This document shows, piece by piece, positions 4,008-28,703 of a stretch of 52,028 nt of DNA (position 1 is the stretch's first letter; each line of letters opens with the position of its first letter). The notes under the pieces are model-generated. The model was not told the origin of the DNA and ran no database searches. It saw only the letters and a program-made list of their open reading frames with translations. The stretch comes from an archaeon. Lineage in GTDB: Archaea > Iainarchaeota > Iainarchaeia > Iainarchaeales > Iainarchaeaceae. Both the position numbers and the translations under genes were made by a program. Where the stretch lies: positions 1 to 52,028 of the forward strand of contig DATDXA010000005.1 in NCBI GenBank assembly GCA_035289485.1, written 5' to 3'.

Positions 4008-4637
4008 TTGGATTTAATTCACTGCATGAACGCGCGCGAACGAAATGACCTTATCATTAGCTGGCTTACTATCAGCTTCGCATTCGCATGGATACAGGTA
4101 AATGTGCTCACCTCCGGTGGCGTGATGGACCTTGTCGCTGCATTTGTGATAATGCTCGTTGCGGTGGGCGCGGGATTCATACTCCATGAACTCGCACACA
4201 AGTACGTTGCAATACATTACGGCGCGCACGCCGAATTTCGTATGTGGAGAGAAGGCCTAATTTTCGCGATAATACTCGCATTTACAATTGGAATAGTATT
4301 CGCCGCCCCCGGAGCGGTATATGTGATGGGAAGAAGCATAACAACAAGGCAAAATGGTATAATCTCCCTAGCAGGGCCGGTAACAAATCTTGCGATAGTT
4401 CTTGCGTTTGGAATGCTTTATGGACTGCTCAATCCTGCAGGCTTTCTGAAGGCATTGATTGCATATACAATGCAGATAAACTTCTTCCTTGCCGCATTCA
4501 ACATGCTGCCGATTTTTCCGCTAGACGGGAGCAAGGTATTTGCATGGAATAAGGGCATTTGGCTTGTTACAATAGCCATTGCGGCAGCCGGAGTGATTTT
4601 CTTTAATGATGTGCTTGCGTTGTTTTCAATGGCGTGA
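4008..4637 (+). CDS. site-2 protease family (M50) membrane metalloprotease
   Basis: HELAHKYV (HExxH) in a TM helix plus NMLPIFPLDGSKV (LDG motif), multi-pass membrane protein. Confidence 0.8.
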   Translation: MDLIHCMNARERNDLIISWLTISFAFAWIQVNVLTSGGVMDLVAAFVIMLVAVGAGFILHELAHKYVAIHYGAHAEFRMWREGLIFAIILAFTIGIVFAAPGAVYVMGRSITTRQNGIISLAGPVTNLAIVLAFGMLYGLLNPAGFLKALIAYTMQINFFLAAFNMLPIFPLDGSKVFAWNKGIWLVTIAIAAAGVIFFNDVLALFSMA

Positions 4638-18802: not shown

Positions 18803-19071
18803 CAAAAAATAGGCAAAAGAAAGGCGTAAGAGCTTTTGCAGGGTTCGGTGCCGGTGCGGGAAACGAATATTAAAGGCAGGAGAGAAATAGCTATATGGAA
18901 AAAAGTGGTGAGAATGAAGACCTTTTCCTACAGCTCGTGAAAGGGCTTGAAGACATACGAATGGGCAGAATAAAACTGTGGAAGCCAAAGGCTGCTGATT
19001 GAATCTTAGCCATTAGCTTGTGAAACGCCCACAAAACTGTTTTTATTGCTTCGCGAGCCTAAATTTAACCT

Positions 19072-21111: not shown

Positions 21112-22869
21112 ATGGCAGATTACATGGACCAGCTCTTCAAGAATGTCAAGAAGAAGGGCCAGCCTGCAACTCCAGCTCCGCCCCCAAAAAAAGAAGAGAA
21201 AAAGGCGCCCGAAACCAAATCAAAACTTGAGGAAAAGCTTGCGGCGATTACAAGGGAAGCAAAGCCCGCTGCGGCCGCTGCACCTGCAGCAATTACGCTT
21301 GAAGATGTGAGAAAGCAGCTAAGCGAAATCAAAAAGGAGGGCAAAGTCGCGCCTGGCCCTGGTAAAGAGCTTGAGGAAAAGGAACCTGAAGACCAGAAGT
21401 CCGAAACGGAAAAAGAGCTTGACAGAAGCGACAAGAAAGAAATAGATTCCTATGGCAACACAAAAATCTACAGGCTCCCAAACCAGCCCCTGCTTTATTA
21501 CTGGACTCCTGTTGTTCGCCCCGGAAGCTCTGAGAAGGCGATAATCAACACAATCAAGGAAGTCGCAACAAGAATCATCAGCATAGCGCCCTACAAAATA
21601 AGGGACCCTGAGCAGAGAAGAAATGTCTACTACCAGCGCATACTTGAAATCATCAAGGATTCTCCGGAGCTAAACATCCCAAAGGCAAAATTCGAATTCT
21701 ATGCGGATGCGGTTGTACGGGAGATGGTTGGGTTTGGAATAATTGACAGCCTGATAAAGGACGACCAGCTCGAAGAAATAATGGTGATAGGCCCCAACAC
21801 GCCCGTGTATGTGTTCCATAGGAAATACGAGATGATGATAACAAACATTGAATTCTTCACTGACGGGGAAATTCAGGACCTCATAAACAGGATTGCAAGG
21901 CAGATTGGAAGAAGAGTGGACATTGCAAGCCCTCTTCTGGATGCCAGGCTTCTTGACGGAAGCCGTGTAAACGCAACAATGCCGCCCGCAACAGTGCAGG
22001 GTTCGACACTTACAATCAGAAAATTCCGCGAAGAGCCATACAGCATAATTGACCTAATAAATTCAGGCACGCTTGATGTGCACGCGGCGGCATTTCTCTG
22101 GACATGCACAGAAGGGATGGGAGTGCGCCCGGCAAACATTCTAATATCCGGAGGAACCGGCTCAGGAAAAACAACCCTTCTGAATGTGCTTGCATCTTTC
22201 ATACCTGATACAGACAGGGTTATTACAATCGAGGACACGGCTGAACTCAACCTTCCAATGAGGCACTGGATAAGGATGGAGGCAAGGCCGCCAGGGCTTG
22301 AAGGAACCGGGGAGCTTACAATGGACATACTTACAAAGAACTCGCTTAGAATGAGGCCTGACCGGGTGCTTGTAGGTGAAGTAAGGCATGATGAGGCGTT
22401 CACGCTTTTCACGGCGTTCAATACTGGACATGACGGATCGATGGGAACAGTTCATGCAAATTCCCCGCAGGAAACCGTAATCAGGGTCACAAACCCCCCG
22501 ATGAATGTGCCTGATGTCATGCTCTCTGGGCTTAATTTCATTGTCGTGATACACAGGCTCCATGACAAGAAGCTTGGAACAATCAGAAGGGTTACAGAGA
22601 TTGCGGAAGTTACGGGAGCGCTTAAAGGAAAGCCCAAAACCGACACTATTTTCAAATGGGATCCGGTCCCTGACATGCTTAAAAGGACAGACGAGCCAAT
22701 GGAATACATGATAACGCTCCAGGAGCTGAGCGGCTATACAAGAAAGCAGATAGAGGACGAAATAGACAAGCGCGCGACCTTCCTTACAAAGCTCCTTCGC
22801 GAAAATGTGCACGAGATGAGGTCTGTTTCAAGGAAAATGAAGGATTACCTAACGATGCAAAAGGGTTGA
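21112..22869 (+). CDS. type IV filament assembly ATPase (FlaI/PilB/TadA superfamily) with K/E/P/A-rich N-terminal extension
   Basis: Walker A GGTGSGKTT, Asp box, Walker B VLVGEVR, His box TGHDGSMGTVHA; first about 110 aa low complexity. Confidence 0.9.
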   Translation: MADYMDQLFKNVKKKGQPATPAPPPKKEEKKAPETKSKLEEKLAAITREAKPAAAAAPAAITLEDVRKQLSEIKKEGKVAPGPGKELEEKEPEDQKSETEKELDRSDKKEIDSYGNTKIYRLPNQPLLYYWTPVVRPGSSEKAIINTIKEVATRIISIAPYKIRDPEQRRNVYYQRILEIIKDSPELNIPKAKFEFYADAVVREMVGFGIIDSLIKDDQLEEIMVIGPNTPVYVFHRKYEMMITNIEFFTDGEIQDLINRIARQIGRRVDIASPLLDARLLDGSRVNATMPPATVQGSTLTIRKFREEPYSIIDLINSGTLDVHAAAFLWTCTEGMGVRPANILISGGTGSGKTTLLNVLASFIPDTDRVITIEDTAELNLPMRHWIRMEARPPGLEGTGELTMDILTKNSLRMRPDRVLVGEVRHDEAFTLFTAFNTGHDGSMGTVHANSPQETVIRVTNPPMNVPDVMLSGLNFIVVIHRLHDKKLGTIRRVTEIAEVTGALKGKPKTDTIFKWDPVPDMLKRTDEPMEYMITLQELSGYTRKQIEDEIDKRATFLTKLLRENVHEMRSVSRKMKDYLTMQKG

Positions 22870-22873
22870 TTGC

Positions 22874-24022
22874 TTGCCAGAACAGCTTGACCAGATAAAA
22901 AAGCAGATTGAAGAGAGAAAAAAACAGAAGGCCCTAGAAGAGGGGCAGATTAGGCCGCAGCAAGAAAAATTAGACGAAAAAAAAGTTGACACAATAGTCG
23001 CGCGCATGAAGAAAAAATACACAGACCAGGGAGTCGAGAACTCGCAGGTCGGGGGAAAGCTTGGCGAGCTGCGCGGCATAATCACTGAAAATGAAATGGC
23101 CGCAATCAATGTTGAAAATGTCGAGGACTTAACCGAATTCCGCTCCCCGATAATAAAGCGCCTTGGGAAATTTTACATCTGGTTTAGGCCGGTGATGGAA
23201 ATTCTCATGGACATCATGAAAAAGCTGCCAATCACTTCCGACACAAGATACTATTTATACTCCGCAAACATGAGGTATTCGATAACTCAGTGGCTTGCGC
23301 TCACGATTTCTGCCGCAGTAATCGCGATGCTTGTAACGCTCATTTCAATGGGAAGCCTTTCATTCTACTTCGACATCACGCAGGCGTACACGGCAGTAAT
23401 CACCATTATAGTTGGCATGTTCACTCTTGCCATTATGCTCCTTATCCCGCGCGGAGCCGCAAGGAGAAGGGGAAATGAGGTGAGCACGGAGCTTCCGTTC
23501 GCGCTGCGCCACATGGCAACTGAGCTGAAAGCCGGCCTTGGATTGTATAAGACAATACAGACAATTGCGGTTGCGGATTACGGGGTGCTGAGCCAGGAAT
23601 TCGCGCGCACTGTAACTGAAATCGAGGAAGGAACTGATGCAAAGGATGCGCTCACGCATTTCGCGCTAAGGACGCAGTCAAAGGCCCTGCGAAACGCCAT
23701 GCTGCACGTTGTAAGGGCGCTAAAGACCGGGGGGAACCTCTCAGACATCATGAACACAATTGCAGAGGATGTGAGCTTTGACCTTCGGGTGAGGGTTAGG
23801 GACTACGCCGAGAAAATGAATTTTTTCGGGGTAATATATATTTTCATTGCAATAGTTGCTCCGGTTTTCCTTGCAATAATAGGCGCAGTGCTAAATGCGC
23901 CGGTTTCAATCGGCAACGTTTCCGTTCCGCCAATCCTTATAACAATAACTTACATGGTGATAATGCCGGCAATACTCGGATTCCTGATAATTTATCTGAG
24001 GATGAGCGAGCCTAAGGTGTAA
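22874..24022 (+). CDS. TadB/TadC-like (single T2SSF domain) platform membrane protein 1
   Basis: ELPFALRHMATELKAGLGLYKTIQTIA T2SSF-like helix pair flanked by TM helices; TTG start; charged N-terminal extension. Confidence 0.8.
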   Translation: MPEQLDQIKKQIEERKKQKALEEGQIRPQQEKLDEKKVDTIVARMKKKYTDQGVENSQVGGKLGELRGIITENEMAAINVENVEDLTEFRSPIIKRLGKFYIWFRPVMEILMDIMKKLPITSDTRYYLYSANMRYSITQWLALTISAAVIAMLVTLISMGSLSFYFDITQAYTAVITIIVGMFTLAIMLLIPRGAARRRGNEVSTELPFALRHMATELKAGLGLYKTIQTIAVADYGVLSQEFARTVTEIEEGTDAKDALTHFALRTQSKALRNAMLHVVRALKTGGNLSDIMNTIAEDVSFDLRVRVRDYAEKMNFFGVIYIFIAIVAPVFLAIIGAVLNAPVSIGNVSVPPILITITYMVIMPAILGFLIIYLRMSEPKV

Positions 24023-24025
24023 AAA

Positions 24026-24982
24026 ATGGAACTCAAGCTGATGCAAAACACGCCCGGAATCAAGGGAAGCAGTTTCCTCACCAAATATGCCTCATACCTG
24101 CACAGCGCGGAATTCCGTGTAGACCCGCTTATCTGGATTGTTTTCTCGCTTGTTGCATCCGCGCTTGTTGGCGCCATGGTATGGTACGTTGCCGGCGTAA
24201 TTCTCGTGGTAAAGGAGACACTCCAGCTCACTGTGCTCATTTCATTTGTGGCACTTGATGTGCTGATAGGCTACCCGTATTTCAAGGCCGAGCAGCGCAT
24301 AGAGCAAATTGAAGGCGACCTTCCTGATGCCCTGCGGCAAATGTCTGACACGCTAAAAAGCGGGGGAACATACGAATACGCCCTAAGGGAGGTCGTGAAT
24401 TCGGATCTTGGGCCACTTAAGAAGGAAATCGGCGAAGTGCTCAAAAAACTCGAGGAAGGGGAGAACTTTGAAACGGCGCTTCGCACGCTCTCATACAATG
24501 TTGATTCAAGGCTTGTGCGAAGGACCATTACAATCATAATCGACTCCGTGGCTGCGGGTGCCGGCCTTGCGAACGTTCTTGAGGAAATCGCAGAAGATGT
24601 AAGGGAGAGCCACAGGATACAAAAGGAGAGAAAGGCAAGGACTGTGCTTCAGGTCATATTCATGTTCGCCGCGGGAGGGGTAATAGCGCCGATGATTTTC
24701 GGATTCGTTTCGACAATATCCAAAGTTCTCCTCAATGCATCTGCCGCAGCGGTATCTGCTGAAAGAGTTGCCGAATCCAACAACGCCCTTGGCGTAATTG
24801 AGCTCTCTATACAAGGATATATTTTCGTGATGTCGATTGCGACCGGCATAATGATTTCAGTTATGAGAGAGGGTAAAATAAGCAAAAGCATTATATATAT
24901 CCCCGTTCTCTTGTGTATAGCATATATTTCCTACCTGTTGGCGGGGTTCGTATCCGGGCTCCTGGTAGGGGTGGGATCATGA
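24026..24982 (+). CDS. TadB/TadC-like (single T2SSF domain) platform membrane protein 2
   Basis: DLPDALRQMSDTLKSGGTYEYALREV T2SSF-like core flanked by TM helices. Confidence 0.8.
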   Translation: MELKLMQNTPGIKGSSFLTKYASYLHSAEFRVDPLIWIVFSLVASALVGAMVWYVAGVILVVKETLQLTVLISFVALDVLIGYPYFKAEQRIEQIEGDLPDALRQMSDTLKSGGTYEYALREVVNSDLGPLKKEIGEVLKKLEEGENFETALRTLSYNVDSRLVRRTITIIIDSVAAGAGLANVLEEIAEDVRESHRIQKERKARTVLQVIFMFAAGGVIAPMIFGFVSTISKVLLNASAAAVSAERVAESNNALGVIELSIQGYIFVMSIATGIMISVMREGKISKSIIYIPVLLCIAYISYLLAGFVSGLLVGVGS

Positions 24983-25128
24983 AAGTAATTTGGGAAGAAA
25001 AAGGCCAGGCATCGACCGAAGTCATTTTGGTTCTTGGATTGGCAGTTGTCGCCGCTATTACGGTTGGCTTCTTTCTCAAAAACTTTGTGACCCAGCAAGC
25101 ACAGCCACAAGTGCAACAGAAATTATGA
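24979..25128 (+). CDS. small class III signal peptide protein (49 aa)
   Basis: MKVIWEEKG-QASTEVILVLGLAVVAAITVGFF; ATGA overlap with the upstream gene. Confidence 0.7.
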   Translation: MKVIWEEKGQASTEVILVLGLAVVAAITVGFFLKNFVTQQAQPQVQQKL

Positions 25129-25150: not shown

Positions 25151-25567
25151 ATGAATGTAAAAGGACAGGGAGCACTCGAATACCTGCTACTTATAGGCGG
25201 AGCAATAGTCGTCGCGGTCGTAGTCGTGACACTACTACTCAACCTGGGAAGCACAGGAGGGGCAAACGCAGGAAGCTCAAGCATGGGATCAATCGGGGCA
25301 CAGTACGCGGCAACCGCGGGAAACAGCCCTCCAACATGCAACGATGTTACACCCAGCACTACAGCAGCCAATGCTGACAATTGGATTTTCAACAATAACA
25401 CAAAGGAATGTTGGGCAATTTCGGGATCATATCCGAACTGTACAGCAACAAGAGGAGTAACAGCAGCAGGCGTAGTTATTACAACTGATGATACGTGCGG
25501 TGCAGGATCGCAAGACCAAATAGTCGCTGCCGGCACGGGCCATACAGCCAATAACCATAACATCTAA
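25151..25567 (+). CDS. class III signal peptide pilin, paralogue A
   Basis: MNVKG-QGALEYLLLIGGAIVVAVVVV; GGAGG-like SD upstream; Cys/Thr/Asn-rich C-terminal domain. Confidence 0.8.
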   Translation: MNVKGQGALEYLLLIGGAIVVAVVVVTLLLNLGSTGGANAGSSSMGSIGAQYAATAGNSPPTCNDVTPSTTAANADNWIFNNNTKECWAISGSYPNCTATRGVTAAGVVITTDDTCGAGSQDQIVAAGTGHTANNHNI

Positions 25568-25697: not shown

Positions 25698-26090
25698 ATG
25701 AATAAGGGACAGGGAGCACTCGAATACCTATTGCTTATAGGCGGAGCAATAGTCGTCGCGGTCGTAGTCGTGACACTACTACTCAACCTGGGAAGCACAG
25801 GAGGGGCAAACGCAGGAAGCTCAAGCATGGGGGCTATTTGCGCACAATACGCATCGACTGCGGGCAATGCAACTAAGACTTGCAGCGACGTTTCATCTGG
25901 AGCTGGTCAGTCAGCATACATGTGGAATAATACCACAAAGCAGTGCTGGATATGCGGCGGCACGTATTCTGCGTGCACGGCAACAAAGGACCCACTGAAC
26001 GCAACAGTTCCGGGAAATTGCTGCCTGAATCCACCAGGATGCACATTAAACGATGCGGATCCGGTACAGGCTTACGTACAGATTAACTAA
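25698..26090 (+). CDS. class III signal peptide pilin, paralogue B
   Basis: MNKG-QGALEYLLLIGGAIVVAVVVV; 5' 125 nt nearly identical to paralogue A, C-terminus divergent and Cys-rich. Confidence 0.8.
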   Translation: MNKGQGALEYLLLIGGAIVVAVVVVTLLLNLGSTGGANAGSSSMGAICAQYASTAGNATKTCSDVSSGAGQSAYMWNNTTKQCWICGGTYSACTATKDPLNATVPGNCCLNPPGCTLNDADPVQAYVQIN

Positions 26091-26198
26091 ACAATTACAC
26101 CAAAGAAAAAGCGTGACAAATGCCGTGCCTTATTTTATTTTTTCATTTAAACACCAACAAAGAATAAATACTACCAAGCCCTAATATTGGCGGTAAAT

Positions 26199-26369
26199 AT
26201 GAATGAACGCGCGCAGGTTTCGGTGGAATACCTTCTAACCATTATGTTTGCGGTACTGCTTGTGATAGCGGTTACCGTGATTGCATTCAACATTTCGGTG
26301 GTTGCCGACAGGGCGCAGCTAAAGGTTGTGCAGAACCGCGACTCCGTGATTTCAAGTTTGATGGGGTAA
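26199..26369 (+). CDS. small class III signal peptide protein (56 aa)
   Basis: MNERA-QVSVEYLLTIMFAVLLVIAV; resembles the 3311-3490 product. Confidence 0.7.
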   Translation: MNERAQVSVEYLLTIMFAVLLVIAVTVIAFNISVVADRAQLKVVQNRDSVISSLMG

Positions 26370-26383
26370 TTGCGAAGCCAAGC

Positions 26384-26690
26384 CCGTCCGCAGGACGGTC
26401 TGTCGCTCTTCCGAGCCGTTCGGCAAAGCATAGCTTTGCTGAACCCAGCAGAACATAGTTCTGCCGGGAAACTCGGAGTGCAAAACCGCGACAGCGTAAT
26501 TTCTAGCCTGATTAGTTAAATGTGAAGCCAAGCCTATCGAGGTCTCAAGACCGACCTGGCAGAGCAAGCTCTGCAAGGCCTCCCAAAGCAGTGGCTTTGG
26601 AAGGAGATAGGGTGCTCCCTCCCGACGAGCAGGTCGGGCGCACCGGCACCTAACCCTGCGTGAGTTTTTAACCCCGCCATGGCGCAAGCT
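26384..26690. repeat. GC-rich intergenic block densely packed with short hairpins (REP-like palindromic units)
   Basis: At least 8 hairpins read by eye, e.g. CCGTCC-gca-GGACGG, GCAAAGC-ata-GCTTTGC, GCAGAAC-ata-GTTCTGC, GCAGAGC-aa-GCTCTGC, CCAAAGC-agtg-GCTTTGG, CCCGAC-gagcag-GTCGGG. Confidence 0.7.
26478..26519 (+). repeat. in-frame duplicate of the last 13 codons plus stop of the 26199-26369 gene
   Basis: VQNRDSVISSLIS* versus VQNRDSVISSLMG*; 57-nt units at 26328-26384 and 26478-26534, about 80% identical. Confidence 0.8.
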
Positions 26691-26695
26691 ATTTT

Positions 26696-27118
26696 ATGGC
26701 GCAGAGATTCTACCTTGACACTGCAATTTGGAGGGATTACTTTGAGGACAGGCGGGATGGAATTAGGCCACTTGGAGAATTTGCATTTCAGTTTCTGAGA
26801 AATTGCGATAAGCAAGGATGCATGATTTTGTATTCAGAATTAGTTGTCCATGAGCTAAAGCGCGACTATTCTGACGAGAAGATAAAACAGGTTTTTTCTC
26901 CATTCAACCATTTTCTCGAAATAGTGTCTATTTCCGATGCACAATATTTGGAAGCCAAAAAATTGGCGAATATAAAAAGGGACTCTCACGAATCGGATAT
27001 TTTGCATGCTATTCTTGCAAGGGATAACGGTGCAGTTTTGATTACAAGAGATTTCCATTTTGAAACGCTCAGGGACATTGCAGAAATTAAAATGCCAGAA
27101 GAAGTTACTTTTGACTGA
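26696..27118 (+). CDS. PIN-domain protein (VapC-like)
   Basis: FYLDTAIW... (N-terminal Asp), E in SELVVHEL, DILHAILA, LITRDFHF (C-terminal Asp) fit the PIN acidic residue pattern. Confidence 0.75.
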   Translation: MAQRFYLDTAIWRDYFEDRRDGIRPLGEFAFQFLRNCDKQGCMILYSELVVHELKRDYSDEKIKQVFSPFNHFLEIVSISDAQYLEAKKLANIKRDSHESDILHAILARDNGAVLITRDFHFETLRDIAEIKMPEEVTFD

Positions 27119-27389
27119 ACCGTTTTTCTAAAATGCCCATGAATTCTTTCCCTGCTTCCTCGCGCAATTTATAAAATTCATCGTCAGTCTTTGCCTTTCC
27201 TTTCCCCTTGAAAATGCCCCTTGCGGCAAAGAGCGCATCCCAAGCGACCTTTTTTTTCCTTTCATCGTCCAGCCTTTGCAGCTTTTCCCGGATTGACTCC
27301 CGAACAAATTCGGTTTTGGTGGAATAGTTGAAATCCTTCATATCCCTTTCAATCTGCCGGACAAAAGCGGATTCAATCTTTATGCTCAT
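27105..27389 (-). CDS. ribbon-helix-helix (CopG-like) protein
   Basis: MSIKIESAFVRQIERDMKDFNYSTKTEFVRESIREKL is an RHH-like strand-helix-helix; converges on and overlaps the PIN gene by 14 nt. Confidence 0.65.
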   Translation of the reverse strand: MSIKIESAFVRQIERDMKDFNYSTKTEFVRESIREKLQRLDDERKKKVAWDALFAARGIFKGKGKAKTDDEFYKLREEAGKEFMGILEKRFSQK

Positions 27390-27518
27390 TATTTCCATCA
27401 TATTACTTAGTAATACCAAGTAAACCTTAAAAATAAGTGCGTTCTGCTGCCCGGATAGAATCAGGATAATCAGATTGGTTAAAATACAGCGGGCTGTTTT
27501 ATAGTTAGGCTGAATCCA

Positions 27519-28703
27519 ATGATACCATTTGTACAGGCGTATTTTCTGATTACACTAGTTGCACTCATTGTTGCCACTTACACCGACCTAAAGGAGAGGC
27601 TTGTTAGCAACGGGCTCACATACGGCCTTATTGCGGCGGCTCTTTTGCTCAAGGGAGCGGAATCGTATTTTGCCGCAAATTTGTGGCCGCTTCAGGAATC
27701 ATTGCTTGCAGGCGCAATAGCATTTGCCGCATCATATGCGCTCTACAGGATTGGTGTTTGGGCAGGCGGGGATGTGAAGCTCGTGACCGCGATTGCGTTT
27801 GCAAACCCGCTCAATTACGGGGTGCTTTCTGGAATTTTCCCGCTTCCGGCATGGGCATCCGGCACCATCGCGCTCCCGATTTTTTCTGTCGCGCTCATCT
27901 TGGCTTCCGCATTCATGGTTTTTCCGATTGGAATTGCAATGAGCATTGGCGCCGCGCTCAAGCACAGAAAAATATTAGCGCAGACATTTGATGCTGTGCG
28001 CAAAAAGGCGCTTGCGATTGCGGCGGCTGCGGCACTTGTGGCAGGGAGCAGGGCACTTTTGCACTGGATTTTTGCGCAATATGCGGGAGCAATTGGAAGT
28101 TTGGCATATATTCCGGGGACAGTCGAATTCATAACACTCATAATCTTAATCGCCTCTGCATTCGCCCCTAAAAGAATCGCAGGCTACGCAGCCGCTGCGC
28201 TTGGAATTATAGGAATACTGCTAGAACCTACGGAATTCATTGTTTTGGGAATTTCGGTTGCCGCCCCTTTGCTTGCGGTGTATGCGCTGTGGAAAATGTA
28301 TGCTGAGAGCAGGGAAGCGGCGTTTAAGGAAACTATTCCGGTAGAAAAACTCGAGGAAGGGATGATTCCGGACAAATACATTGTTGAAAAGGAGGGCGCG
28401 ATAGGATTCGTGGATGCACCTTCGATAAAAACCGTTATAAAGCAGTTAATCAATAATAGAATGGAAAAAACCCTCGAGGACTTCAAAGTGGAGGGGAACG
28501 TGCTCGCAAGCCCGAGGGATGCTGGCGGAATATCAAGGGAGGCTGTGGAGAAATTAAGGAAAATGGCAGGCACGGGAAAATCGCCAAAAAGCATAACGGT
28601 CAGAAAAACCATGGCGTTTGTTCCGGCAATACTTGCCGCGTATATTGCGCTGCAGCTTACAGGGGATTTTGTATGGAACATCTTATTCAAAATAGCGTCA
28701 TGA
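27519..28703 (+). CDS. A24-family prepilin/preflagellin peptidase (PibD/EppA/FlaK-like) with large C-terminal extension
   Basis: Catalytic Asp contexts ATYTDLKERLV and WAGGDVKLV in a polytopic membrane protein; 394 aa. Confidence 0.8.
   Translation: MIPFVQAYFLITLVALIVATYTDLKERLVSNGLTYGLIAAALLLKGAESYFAANLWPLQESLLAGAIAFAASYALYRIGVWAGGDVKLVTAIAFANPLNYGVLSGIFPLPAWASGTIALPIFSVALILASAFMVFPIGIAMSIGAALKHRKILAQTFDAVRKKALAIAAAAALVAGSRALLHWIFAQYAGAIGSLAYIPGTVEFITLIILIASAFAPKRIAGYAAAALGIIGILLEPTEFIVLGISVAAPLLAVYALWKMYAESREAAFKETIPVEKLEEGMIPDKYIVEKEGAIGFVDAPSIKTVIKQLINNRMEKTLEDFKVEGNVLASPRDAGGISREAVEKLRKMAGTGKSPKSITVRKTMAFVPAILAAYIALQLTGDFVWNILFKIAS

Follow-up and report, generated by a model that had tools for sequence, protein, structure and literature searches.

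Accessory-gene hot spots between core genes are filled by homologous or homology-facilitated illegitimate recombination and have been described mainly for bacteria. Partial gene copies are also found in Neisseria, where the silent partial pilin copies known as pilS are used for pilin variation, and translational bypassing elements are known from T4 gene 60 and from mitochondria, where they are referred to as 'byps'. A documented analogue of the arrangement considered here is that of icd in Escherichia coli: according to PMC13626634, which cites Hill et al. 1989, icd and its C-terminal fragment icdC flank the prophage e14, and upon excision the two are recombined, by which icd is changed mostly at synonymous sites.

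Here, we analyse a stretch of 52,028 nt of DNA from a DPANN archaeon of the Iainarchaeum/Diapherotrites type (the whole stretch is referred to as the window), in which the 3' end of a small type IV pilin gene is found a second time downstream of the pilin stop codon. With modest confidence, we lean towards the reading that the second tail, copy 2, goes untranslated and represents a 3' pilin end which has been displaced or duplicated at an insertion hot spot. Next to nothing is known about recombination in these uncultured DPANN archaea, and the locus is also a caution that a tail repeated in frame past a stop codon need not mean recoding.

The pilin gene and its repeated 3' end

The type IV pilus operon of the window, together with the prepilin peptidase gene that follows it, has the following layout:

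21112-22869: secretion ATPase gene of the type IV pilus operon
22874-24982: two TadB/C-like membrane proteins of the same operon
25151-25567 and 25698-26090: two larger pilins of the same operon
26199-26369, plus strand: gene for a small type IV pilin-like protein of 56 aa that carries the class III signal peptide motif QVSVEYLL
27519-28703, plus strand: prepilin peptidase gene (Pfam Peptidase_A24 plus Arc_PepC)

The gene at 26199-26369 is an intact, functional pilin copy. Its 56-aa product has a weak match to Pfam Class_IIIsignal and homologues of 56-62 aa in DPANN archaea (n=15); homologues are annotated as Candidatus Iainarchaeum or Diapherotrites. The small pilin gene adjoins the prepilin peptidase gene in nearly all relatives with a contig that is long enough, and in the window 1,150 nt of other material lie between the pilin stop and the peptidase gene. 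The sequence AAGAATAAATAC at 26160-26172, which is located 27-39 nt before the small pilin ATG and is kept in the related loci L006, L010 and L055, is probably the archaeal BRE/TATA promoter of this gene. Signal peptide and N-terminal helix are conserved between the two larger pilin genes, which are tandem paralogues; they have a 192-nt 5' part in common (25160-25351 versus 25704-25895, 85% identity), and their 3' parts differ. A further minor pilin is probably encoded by a 71-aa ORF (24913-25128, plus strand), which overlaps the end of the TadC-like gene, begins with a pilin-like N-terminus (EEKGQASTEVILVLGLAVVAAITVGFFLK) and is kept in L042 (2287-2502) and L055 (1901-2119).

The repeated tail consists of two copies:

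26328-26384, plus strand: repeat copy 1, the last 13 pilin codons (VQNRDSVISSLMG), TAA, then TTGCGAAGCCAAGCC
26478-26534, plus strand: repeat copy 2, 13 codons (VQNRDSVISSLIS), TAA, then ATGTGAAGCCAAGCC

A repeat finder returned these as a direct repeat of 57 nt with 79% identity and a spacing of 150, and the coordinates, the content and the same bases after both copies had all been given exactly in the initial annotation of the window. Each copy is composed of 13 codons, the TAA and 15 more bases ending in GAAGCCAAGCC, which is found directly after both tails and has no further exact match in the 52 kb; at 11 nt, it is also the longest identical run between the copies, and the next longest has 9 nt. 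Eight of the 13 codons differ, six of them synonymously, as had been reported, and there are 10 differences over 42 nt; the change from TCC to AGC, which was thought to need three substitutions, can be made with two. Beyond the 57 nt, only short matches occur at similar offsets, both in the window (CAAAGCATAGCTTTG versus CAAAGCAGTGGCTTTG; 18 of 500 shuffles score as well) and in L042 (TTCCGGGCCGTAAC versus TTGCGGGCCGAAC; 74 of 500 shuffles score as well). Copy 2 is without the first 43 pilin codons and without a promoter of its own. Among the 486 open frames of 50 aa or more in the window, that of the pilin is alone in having its last 12 residues again within 500 nt downstream, and no third copy of the tail turned up in a search ahead of the peptidase gene.

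Over all 511 aligned bases, the window agrees without a single difference with five contigs that stem from five other samples and assemblers. Six identical independent assemblies, together with the presence of the same architecture in two diverged lineages, leave an assembly artefact, that is, a collapsed or chimeric repeat, with a negligible probability, and the mis-assembly against which the initial annotation had warned is excluded by the five further contigs. Variants of the region within the population were looked for, and none were found. A diversity-generating retroelement was also considered and rejected, as an A of copy 2 is concerned in only four of the 10 differences and G, T and C are involved in the rest; the neighbour genes that were scanned included no reverse transcriptase.

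Relatives with and without the second tail

The comparison set comprised about 40 distinct related loci, and 77 loci were searched for the hairpin-tail unit. In at least ten relatives (L006, L016, L039, L044, L046, L050, L051, L052, L071 and L072), the pilin stop and the start of the peptidase gene are separated by 0-77 nt and there is no second tail; this direct adjacency of pilin and peptidase is the ancestral arrangement. The alignment with orthologous loci that had been proposed as a check thus marks the block in the window as an insertion relative to that arrangement. Apart from the window lineage, only L010-L014 and L042 have a second tail, and the second copies of these relatives are located at L010 3186-3229 and L042 3229-3270. 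In the window and these two sister lineages, a module of copy 1, two hairpins and copy 2 is followed by changeable toxin-antitoxin cassettes and then by the peptidase, and in each of them the same codon marks the left border of copy 2. The copies of L010 differ in 8 of 13 codons, seven of them synonymously (11 nt differences); their sole amino-acid change is at the first codon, from Val to Leu, and from the second codon on the peptides are identical. Those of L042 have 14 nt differences and four amino-acid changes. The identities of TadC and of the peptidase group the window, L071, L010 and L055 into one clade, with L042 as its sister; closer relatives were sought via the peptidase and the PIN gene, and none was above 62% peptidase identity. 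Given the same left junction, the homologous spacer and the single clade, one old event suffices, and one old event with later loss of the module in L071 would be the simplest history.

These relatives bear directly on recoding. Readthrough of the TAA, frameshifting or ribosome hopping would produce a longer pilin with the same C-terminal peptide, and in this genome the pilin frame does stay open over the 36 codons that lead from one copy to the other (ORF 26370-26519, 49 aa, plus strand), which agrees with the 108 nt of open frame first noted between the TAA and copy 2, and stable hairpins follow the stop. However, the spacing of 150 nt is open only here: the copies of L042 are 99 nt apart, with an in-frame TAA three codons before copy 2, and those of L010 are 100 nt apart and out of frame. 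The spacer peptide is not conserved either, and a 36-codon open stretch in GC-rich DNA is expected by chance in about 1 in 5 cases, by our own estimate from the stop-codon frequency. The matched take-off and landing codons of hopping are absent in L010, in which the product of recoding would equal the normal one. As neither the frame nor the openness is conserved, we reject all three of these mechanisms as an account of the repeat and regard them as highly improbable; the programmed readthrough and extended isoform of the initial annotation fall with the in-frame open spacer, which is peculiar to this genome. The 49-aa ORF at 26370-26519 (plus strand) was likewise rejected as a gene, as it is not conserved in L010 or L042.

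A related situation is found in L055, where the order is intact pilin, hairpin, AAA_14/DUF4143 ATPase gene, partial pilin copy and peptidase. The partial copy is without ~14 5' codons, has a decayed tail and no stop, and keeps a piece of the pilin promoter region, and a core of 53 nt is perfectly identical between the two pilin copies. With this longer remnant behind an inserted ATPase gene, the same locus has yielded a longer remnant by insertion. In the window, L010, L042 and L055, direct repeats of the gene 3' end flank inserted DNA, with the upstream copy completing the pilin. Among the origins first suggested, the remnant of a tandem paralogue with a replaced 5' part comes closest to these observations by virtue of the longer remnant of L055, but two intact tandem pilin copies occur in no relative examined. 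The intact neighbouring paralogue, of which copy 2 might have been the tail in a relative, was likewise not found.

AAA_14/DUF4143 ATPase genes are inserted directly up- and downstream of the small pilin in sister lineages (L055 2682-4780, L074 1-987 and L010 113-2920), and their stop codons lie inside the pilin promoter motif. DUF4143 has been classed as a PD-(D/E)XK nuclease fold (PMC3424549). The Logan contig L074 joins both ends of the L055 insert like a circle or a tandem array; it may also be a k=31 path through the 53-nt repeat.

The hairpin spacer and its predicted RNA structure

Two structured stretches adjoin copy 2, one on either side:

26384-26478, plus strand: GC-rich hairpin spacer, with HP1 at 26384-26398 and a branched stem at 26409-26478 enclosing hairpins 26418-26444 and 26445-26467
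26534-26669, plus strand: second GC-rich structured stretch, with a three-hairpin junction at 26534-26610, a further hairpin, the 20-nt motif GCACCGGCACCTAACCCTGC at 26640-26659 and, at its end, a T5 run at 26665-26669

Their GC content is 0.54-0.60, compared with ~0.37 in other intergenic DNA. The RNA fold of 26370-26477 has a predicted energy of -50.1 kcal/mol (z = -5.2), and none of 200 shuffles was as stable. The spacer is homologous in the window, L042 and L010, with insertions and deletions, and HP1 has one compensatory change from C-G to U-A between the window and L042 (alignment columns 76/88). The stretch at 26534-26669 has a fold z of only -1.5, cannot be aligned with L010 or L042 and is lineage-specific except for the 20-nt motif.

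Searches with Rfam, at gathering and permissive thresholds, and with ARAGORN found no RNA family, tRNA or tmRNA in 26100-26800, and the best Rfam matches in the region had 13.5-14.3 bits and E-values of 4.3-9.4. BLAST of 26370-26695 against the window (52 kb of the genome) and all loci found no other copy, except for a 21-nt motif, and this single copy within the 52-kb window and all loci does not support a dispersed hairpin repeat of the MITE or REP type. Several further candidates were rejected. An archaeal bulge-helix-bulge intron, or a conserved pairing of one copy with the other, was sought in the folds of the three lineages, which have no structure in common that links the copies. Antisense action of an RNA from copy 2 onto copy 1 finds only 4-5 of 10-12 differences wobble-compatible, with no enrichment. 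A minus-strand ORF of 111 aa (26352-26687), rich in Arg, was judged to be a by-product of the GC-rich hairpins.

In the alignment fold, codons 6-9 of the tail are predicted to pair with the stop codon and the following TTGCG (26343-26376), a weak signal given that only three sequences were folded. The pairs of this tail-stop stem are maintained via G-U changes in the window, and copy 2 of L010 forms the stem too; in this folding model, the stem could account for part of the constraint that is common to the tails.

Synonymous differences and conservation of copy 2

When an equal number of random substitutions was placed on copy 1, so few amino-acid changes as those between the window copies arose in 0.023% of 200,000 trials (p ~2e-4), and the amino-acid-changing share of the copy differences is ~25%, compared with ~60% expected, by our own estimate, under free drift of copy 2 since one old event. 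As the synonymous bias of the window recurs in L010 and L042, copy 2 bears the imprint of protein-level selection. The bias had been taken initially as a sign that copy 2 is, or recently was, translated; it is strong, and the imprint of selection stands, but present translation is judged to be unlikely and copy 2 is most likely untranslated. Detection of the peptide MQNRDSVISSLIS would support translation. The bias also tells against a mobile hairpin cassette with a long target duplication, the further origin that had been put forward, as a fresh duplication would be identical and neutral decay would not be synonymous.

Among the copy 2 sequences, those of the window and L010 are the most alike, with 7 of 42 nt different (17%). 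They differ from the single tails of L071 and L072 at 7-10 positions, and from copy 2 of L042 at 33-38%. For Leu, the copy 2 sequences of these two lineages have CTN, as do nearly all relatives with a single tail, and copy 1 has TTR; all three copy 1 sequences have TCA-NNT-TTR in common. With its likeness to the single tails and its CTN Leu codon, copy 2 thus looks like the ancestral tail, displaced downstream, and copy 1 would have had a history of its own, in part, at the end of a working gene.

Between these lineages, 47-76% of the four-fold degenerate pilin sites differ, so that neutral DNA should be scrambled, and copy 2 is kept far better than that. In addition, the copies have changed in step: both have Val-Ser in the window, Ala-Thr in L010 and Ala-Ser in L042. 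Codon 8 is ATT/ATT, ATT/ATT and ATA/ATA, and the third base of the Leu codon is G/G, A/A and A/A. Fixed synonymous differences persist beside these co-varying positions, of which two are amino-acid and two synonymous positions. Judged from the alignments, in-step change of this kind would need very short gene-conversion patches or parallel selection, and across the three lineages the conservation of copy 2 and its change in step with copy 1 are a puzzle that does not seem to fit a plain relic.

One answer would be that copy 2 is a functional element kept by selection, either as part of a conserved RNA module (tail, stop, hairpins, tail) in the 3'-untranslated region of the pilin message or as a 13-codon micro-ORF, which in the latter version would start at the GTG or TTG first codon and yield a peptide mimicking the pilin C-terminus. 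Copy 2 and ~15 nt to its left (CCGGRAAACTCGGA) are conserved although synonymous sites are saturated; in all three lineages, copy 2 has no insertions or deletions and keeps its TAA, and its first codon is a possible start (GTG, TTG and GTG, where copy 1 of L010 has GTT). The co-variation of the copies at two amino-acid positions, the compensatory change in HP1 and the z-value of the spacer fold relative to shuffled sequences point in the same direction. These signs come from three lineages only, however, and they have to be set against the four amino-acid changes in copy 2 of L042, the lack of a Shine-Dalgarno-like sequence or promoter ahead of copy 2, an alignment fold that gave no conserved pairing partner, the absence of an Rfam family match and L071, which does without the module, and we consider a functional copy 2 unlikely. 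Were it functional, a duplicate of a coding segment, either untranslated or read as a micro-ORF, would be co-evolving with its parent gene, which would be unusual. We hold it to be rather less probable again that the whole module of tail, stop, hairpins, recoded tail and stop is the selected unit, with its amino acids kept in step and its synonymous sites held different, and that it acts via a micro-peptide or via an RNA device (stop-sequestering stems) for the 3' end of the pilin message.

An insertion hot spot with toxin-antitoxin cassettes

Between copy 2 and the peptidase gene, the window carries an inserted cassette:

26696-27118, plus strand: PIN-domain toxin gene of the inserted cassette (Pfam PIN)
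27105-27401, minus strand: ribbon-helix-helix-type (RHH) antitoxin gene of the same cassette, with weak matches to Pfam PSK_trans_fac and RHH_8

The PIN gene is always accompanied by the antitoxin gene. The cargo after copy 2 differs per lineage, with one PIN/RHH cassette in the window, two cassettes in L042 and two extra genes in L010. The window PIN is 58% identical to the PINs at the same site in L010 and L042, and ~80% identical to PINs at unrelated sites. The PIN/RHH pair (26694-27400) has 77-78% DNA identity to L075 436-1140, L076 406-1046 and L077 2522-3163, and the homology ends at the gene borders, with quite different neighbourhoods in L075-L077. On this sequence comparison, the PIN plus RHH pair is a mobile cassette, and the pilin-peptidase junction an insertion hot spot with cassette turnover. 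No integrase or transposase was found among the Pfam-scanned neighbouring ORFs (which gave PIN, RHH, peptidase, pilins, TctA, Nre and RFC), and a scan of viral contigs with the pilin profile, which bears on a viral or plasmid origin, gave no match.

A 20-nt motif, GCACCGGCACCNAACCCTGC, is found in the window at 26640-26659 (plus strand) and 18838-18857 (minus strand) and in L042 at 4096-4115, with a degenerate form in L010; the chance expectation is zero matches. It lies ~35-55 nt before two unrelated cassettes of the window (PIN/RHH and DUF4258/DUF2283) and before the PIN gene of L042, and it could be a shared operator, a promoter element or a cassette border. In L076 (1271-3307), which comes from a related archaeon, a type II/IV secretion ATPase gene that is split by an intein with a LAGLIDADG endonuclease domain is located beside the PIN/RHH cassette.

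The mobility of the cargo raises the question of whether the hairpins themselves are a miniature non-autonomous integrative element, which would insert into the pilin tail by recombination, would leave the gene intact by carrying its own recoded tail and would have copies 1 and 2 as its left and right attachment sites. The arrangement equals that of e14 in icd (PMC13626634). All copy 1 sequences also carry the TCA-NNT-TTR markers, those of copy 2 have CTR and resemble native single tails, and the single tail of L071 is copy-2-like, as it would be after excision. The identical 53-nt core of L055 and the circle-like join of its insert ends in L074 can be read in the same way, although a k=31 assembly that runs through the 53-nt repeat could also yield the latter. 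Against such an element, there is no recombinase gene near the site, the unit measures only 100-150 bp, and it is present once in the 52 kb and nowhere else in the 77 loci. Furthermore, copy 1 has diverged between hosts by 24-26%, like host genes and with no sign of recent spread, and there is no empty-site allele among the 12 and 7 contigs of the two best-sampled lineages (those of the window and L010). We therefore find a miniature integrative element rather doubtful.

Origin of the second tail

Returning to the reading of copy 2 as a displaced or duplicated pilin end, copy 2 would be the 5'-truncated 3' end of a second pilin, carried in the DNA downstream of the intact gene and probably also in the 3' untranslated part of its RNA, and it would have been left as the mark of an old rearrangement at the pilin-peptidase junction. 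Two routes to the duplicate may be envisaged. The first is a partial tandem duplication of ~100 nt, which would have included the tail, the stop and the downstream hairpins. The second, which seems the more likely one, is recombination with pilin-bearing DNA of another lineage that was joined downstream of the resident gene, with the 5' part of the second pilin copy being lost. For the greater part of the time since they separated, both tails would have belonged to working pilin genes, as copy 1 does to this day; with both tails residing in working genes for long, their differences would be mainly synonymous. The junction would later have taken up and exchanged the toxin-antitoxin cassettes. 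If copy 2 is such a leftover, it records the entry and turnover of accessory genes (toxin-antitoxin genes and DUF4143 ATPases) at a fixed junction in a pilus operon of DPANN archaea.

Comparison with known systems

Similar to translational bypassing elements, the locus belongs to an AT-rich genome and has a stop codon followed by a GC-rich hairpin insert, which lies between repeats of coding sequence. In contrast to these elements, take-off and landing codons are not conserved (L010), and the pilin is already complete before the insert, so that bypassing would change nothing. With Neisseria pilS, the locus has in common a promoterless, 5'-truncated pilin copy near the expressed gene, with a shared short repeat after each of the two copies. 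The difference is that there is one copy of 13 codons here, which encodes nearly the same peptide and so offers almost no variation, and that transfer into the expressed gene has left no sign here beyond the co-variation.

As with icd/icdC, which flank e14 (and phage 21), a gene 3' end is present twice as direct repeats, of which the upstream one completes the gene and the downstream one is a fragment without the 5' part, and an exchange of one for the other alters the gene mostly at synonymous sites. Whereas E. coli has a 15 kb prophage with an integrase between the copies, the excision of which has been observed, the pilin locus has 93 nt of hairpins between them, with no recombinase near and no excised allele seen, and its accessory genes are located after the second copy and not between the copies. 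As in the accessory-gene hot spots of bacteria, two core genes, here the pilin and the peptidase, flank lineage-specific, exchangeable cargo, with partial duplicates of a flanking gene at the joints; the pilin-peptidase junction differs from these in that it belongs to DPANN archaea and in that its partial duplicate is unusually well preserved.
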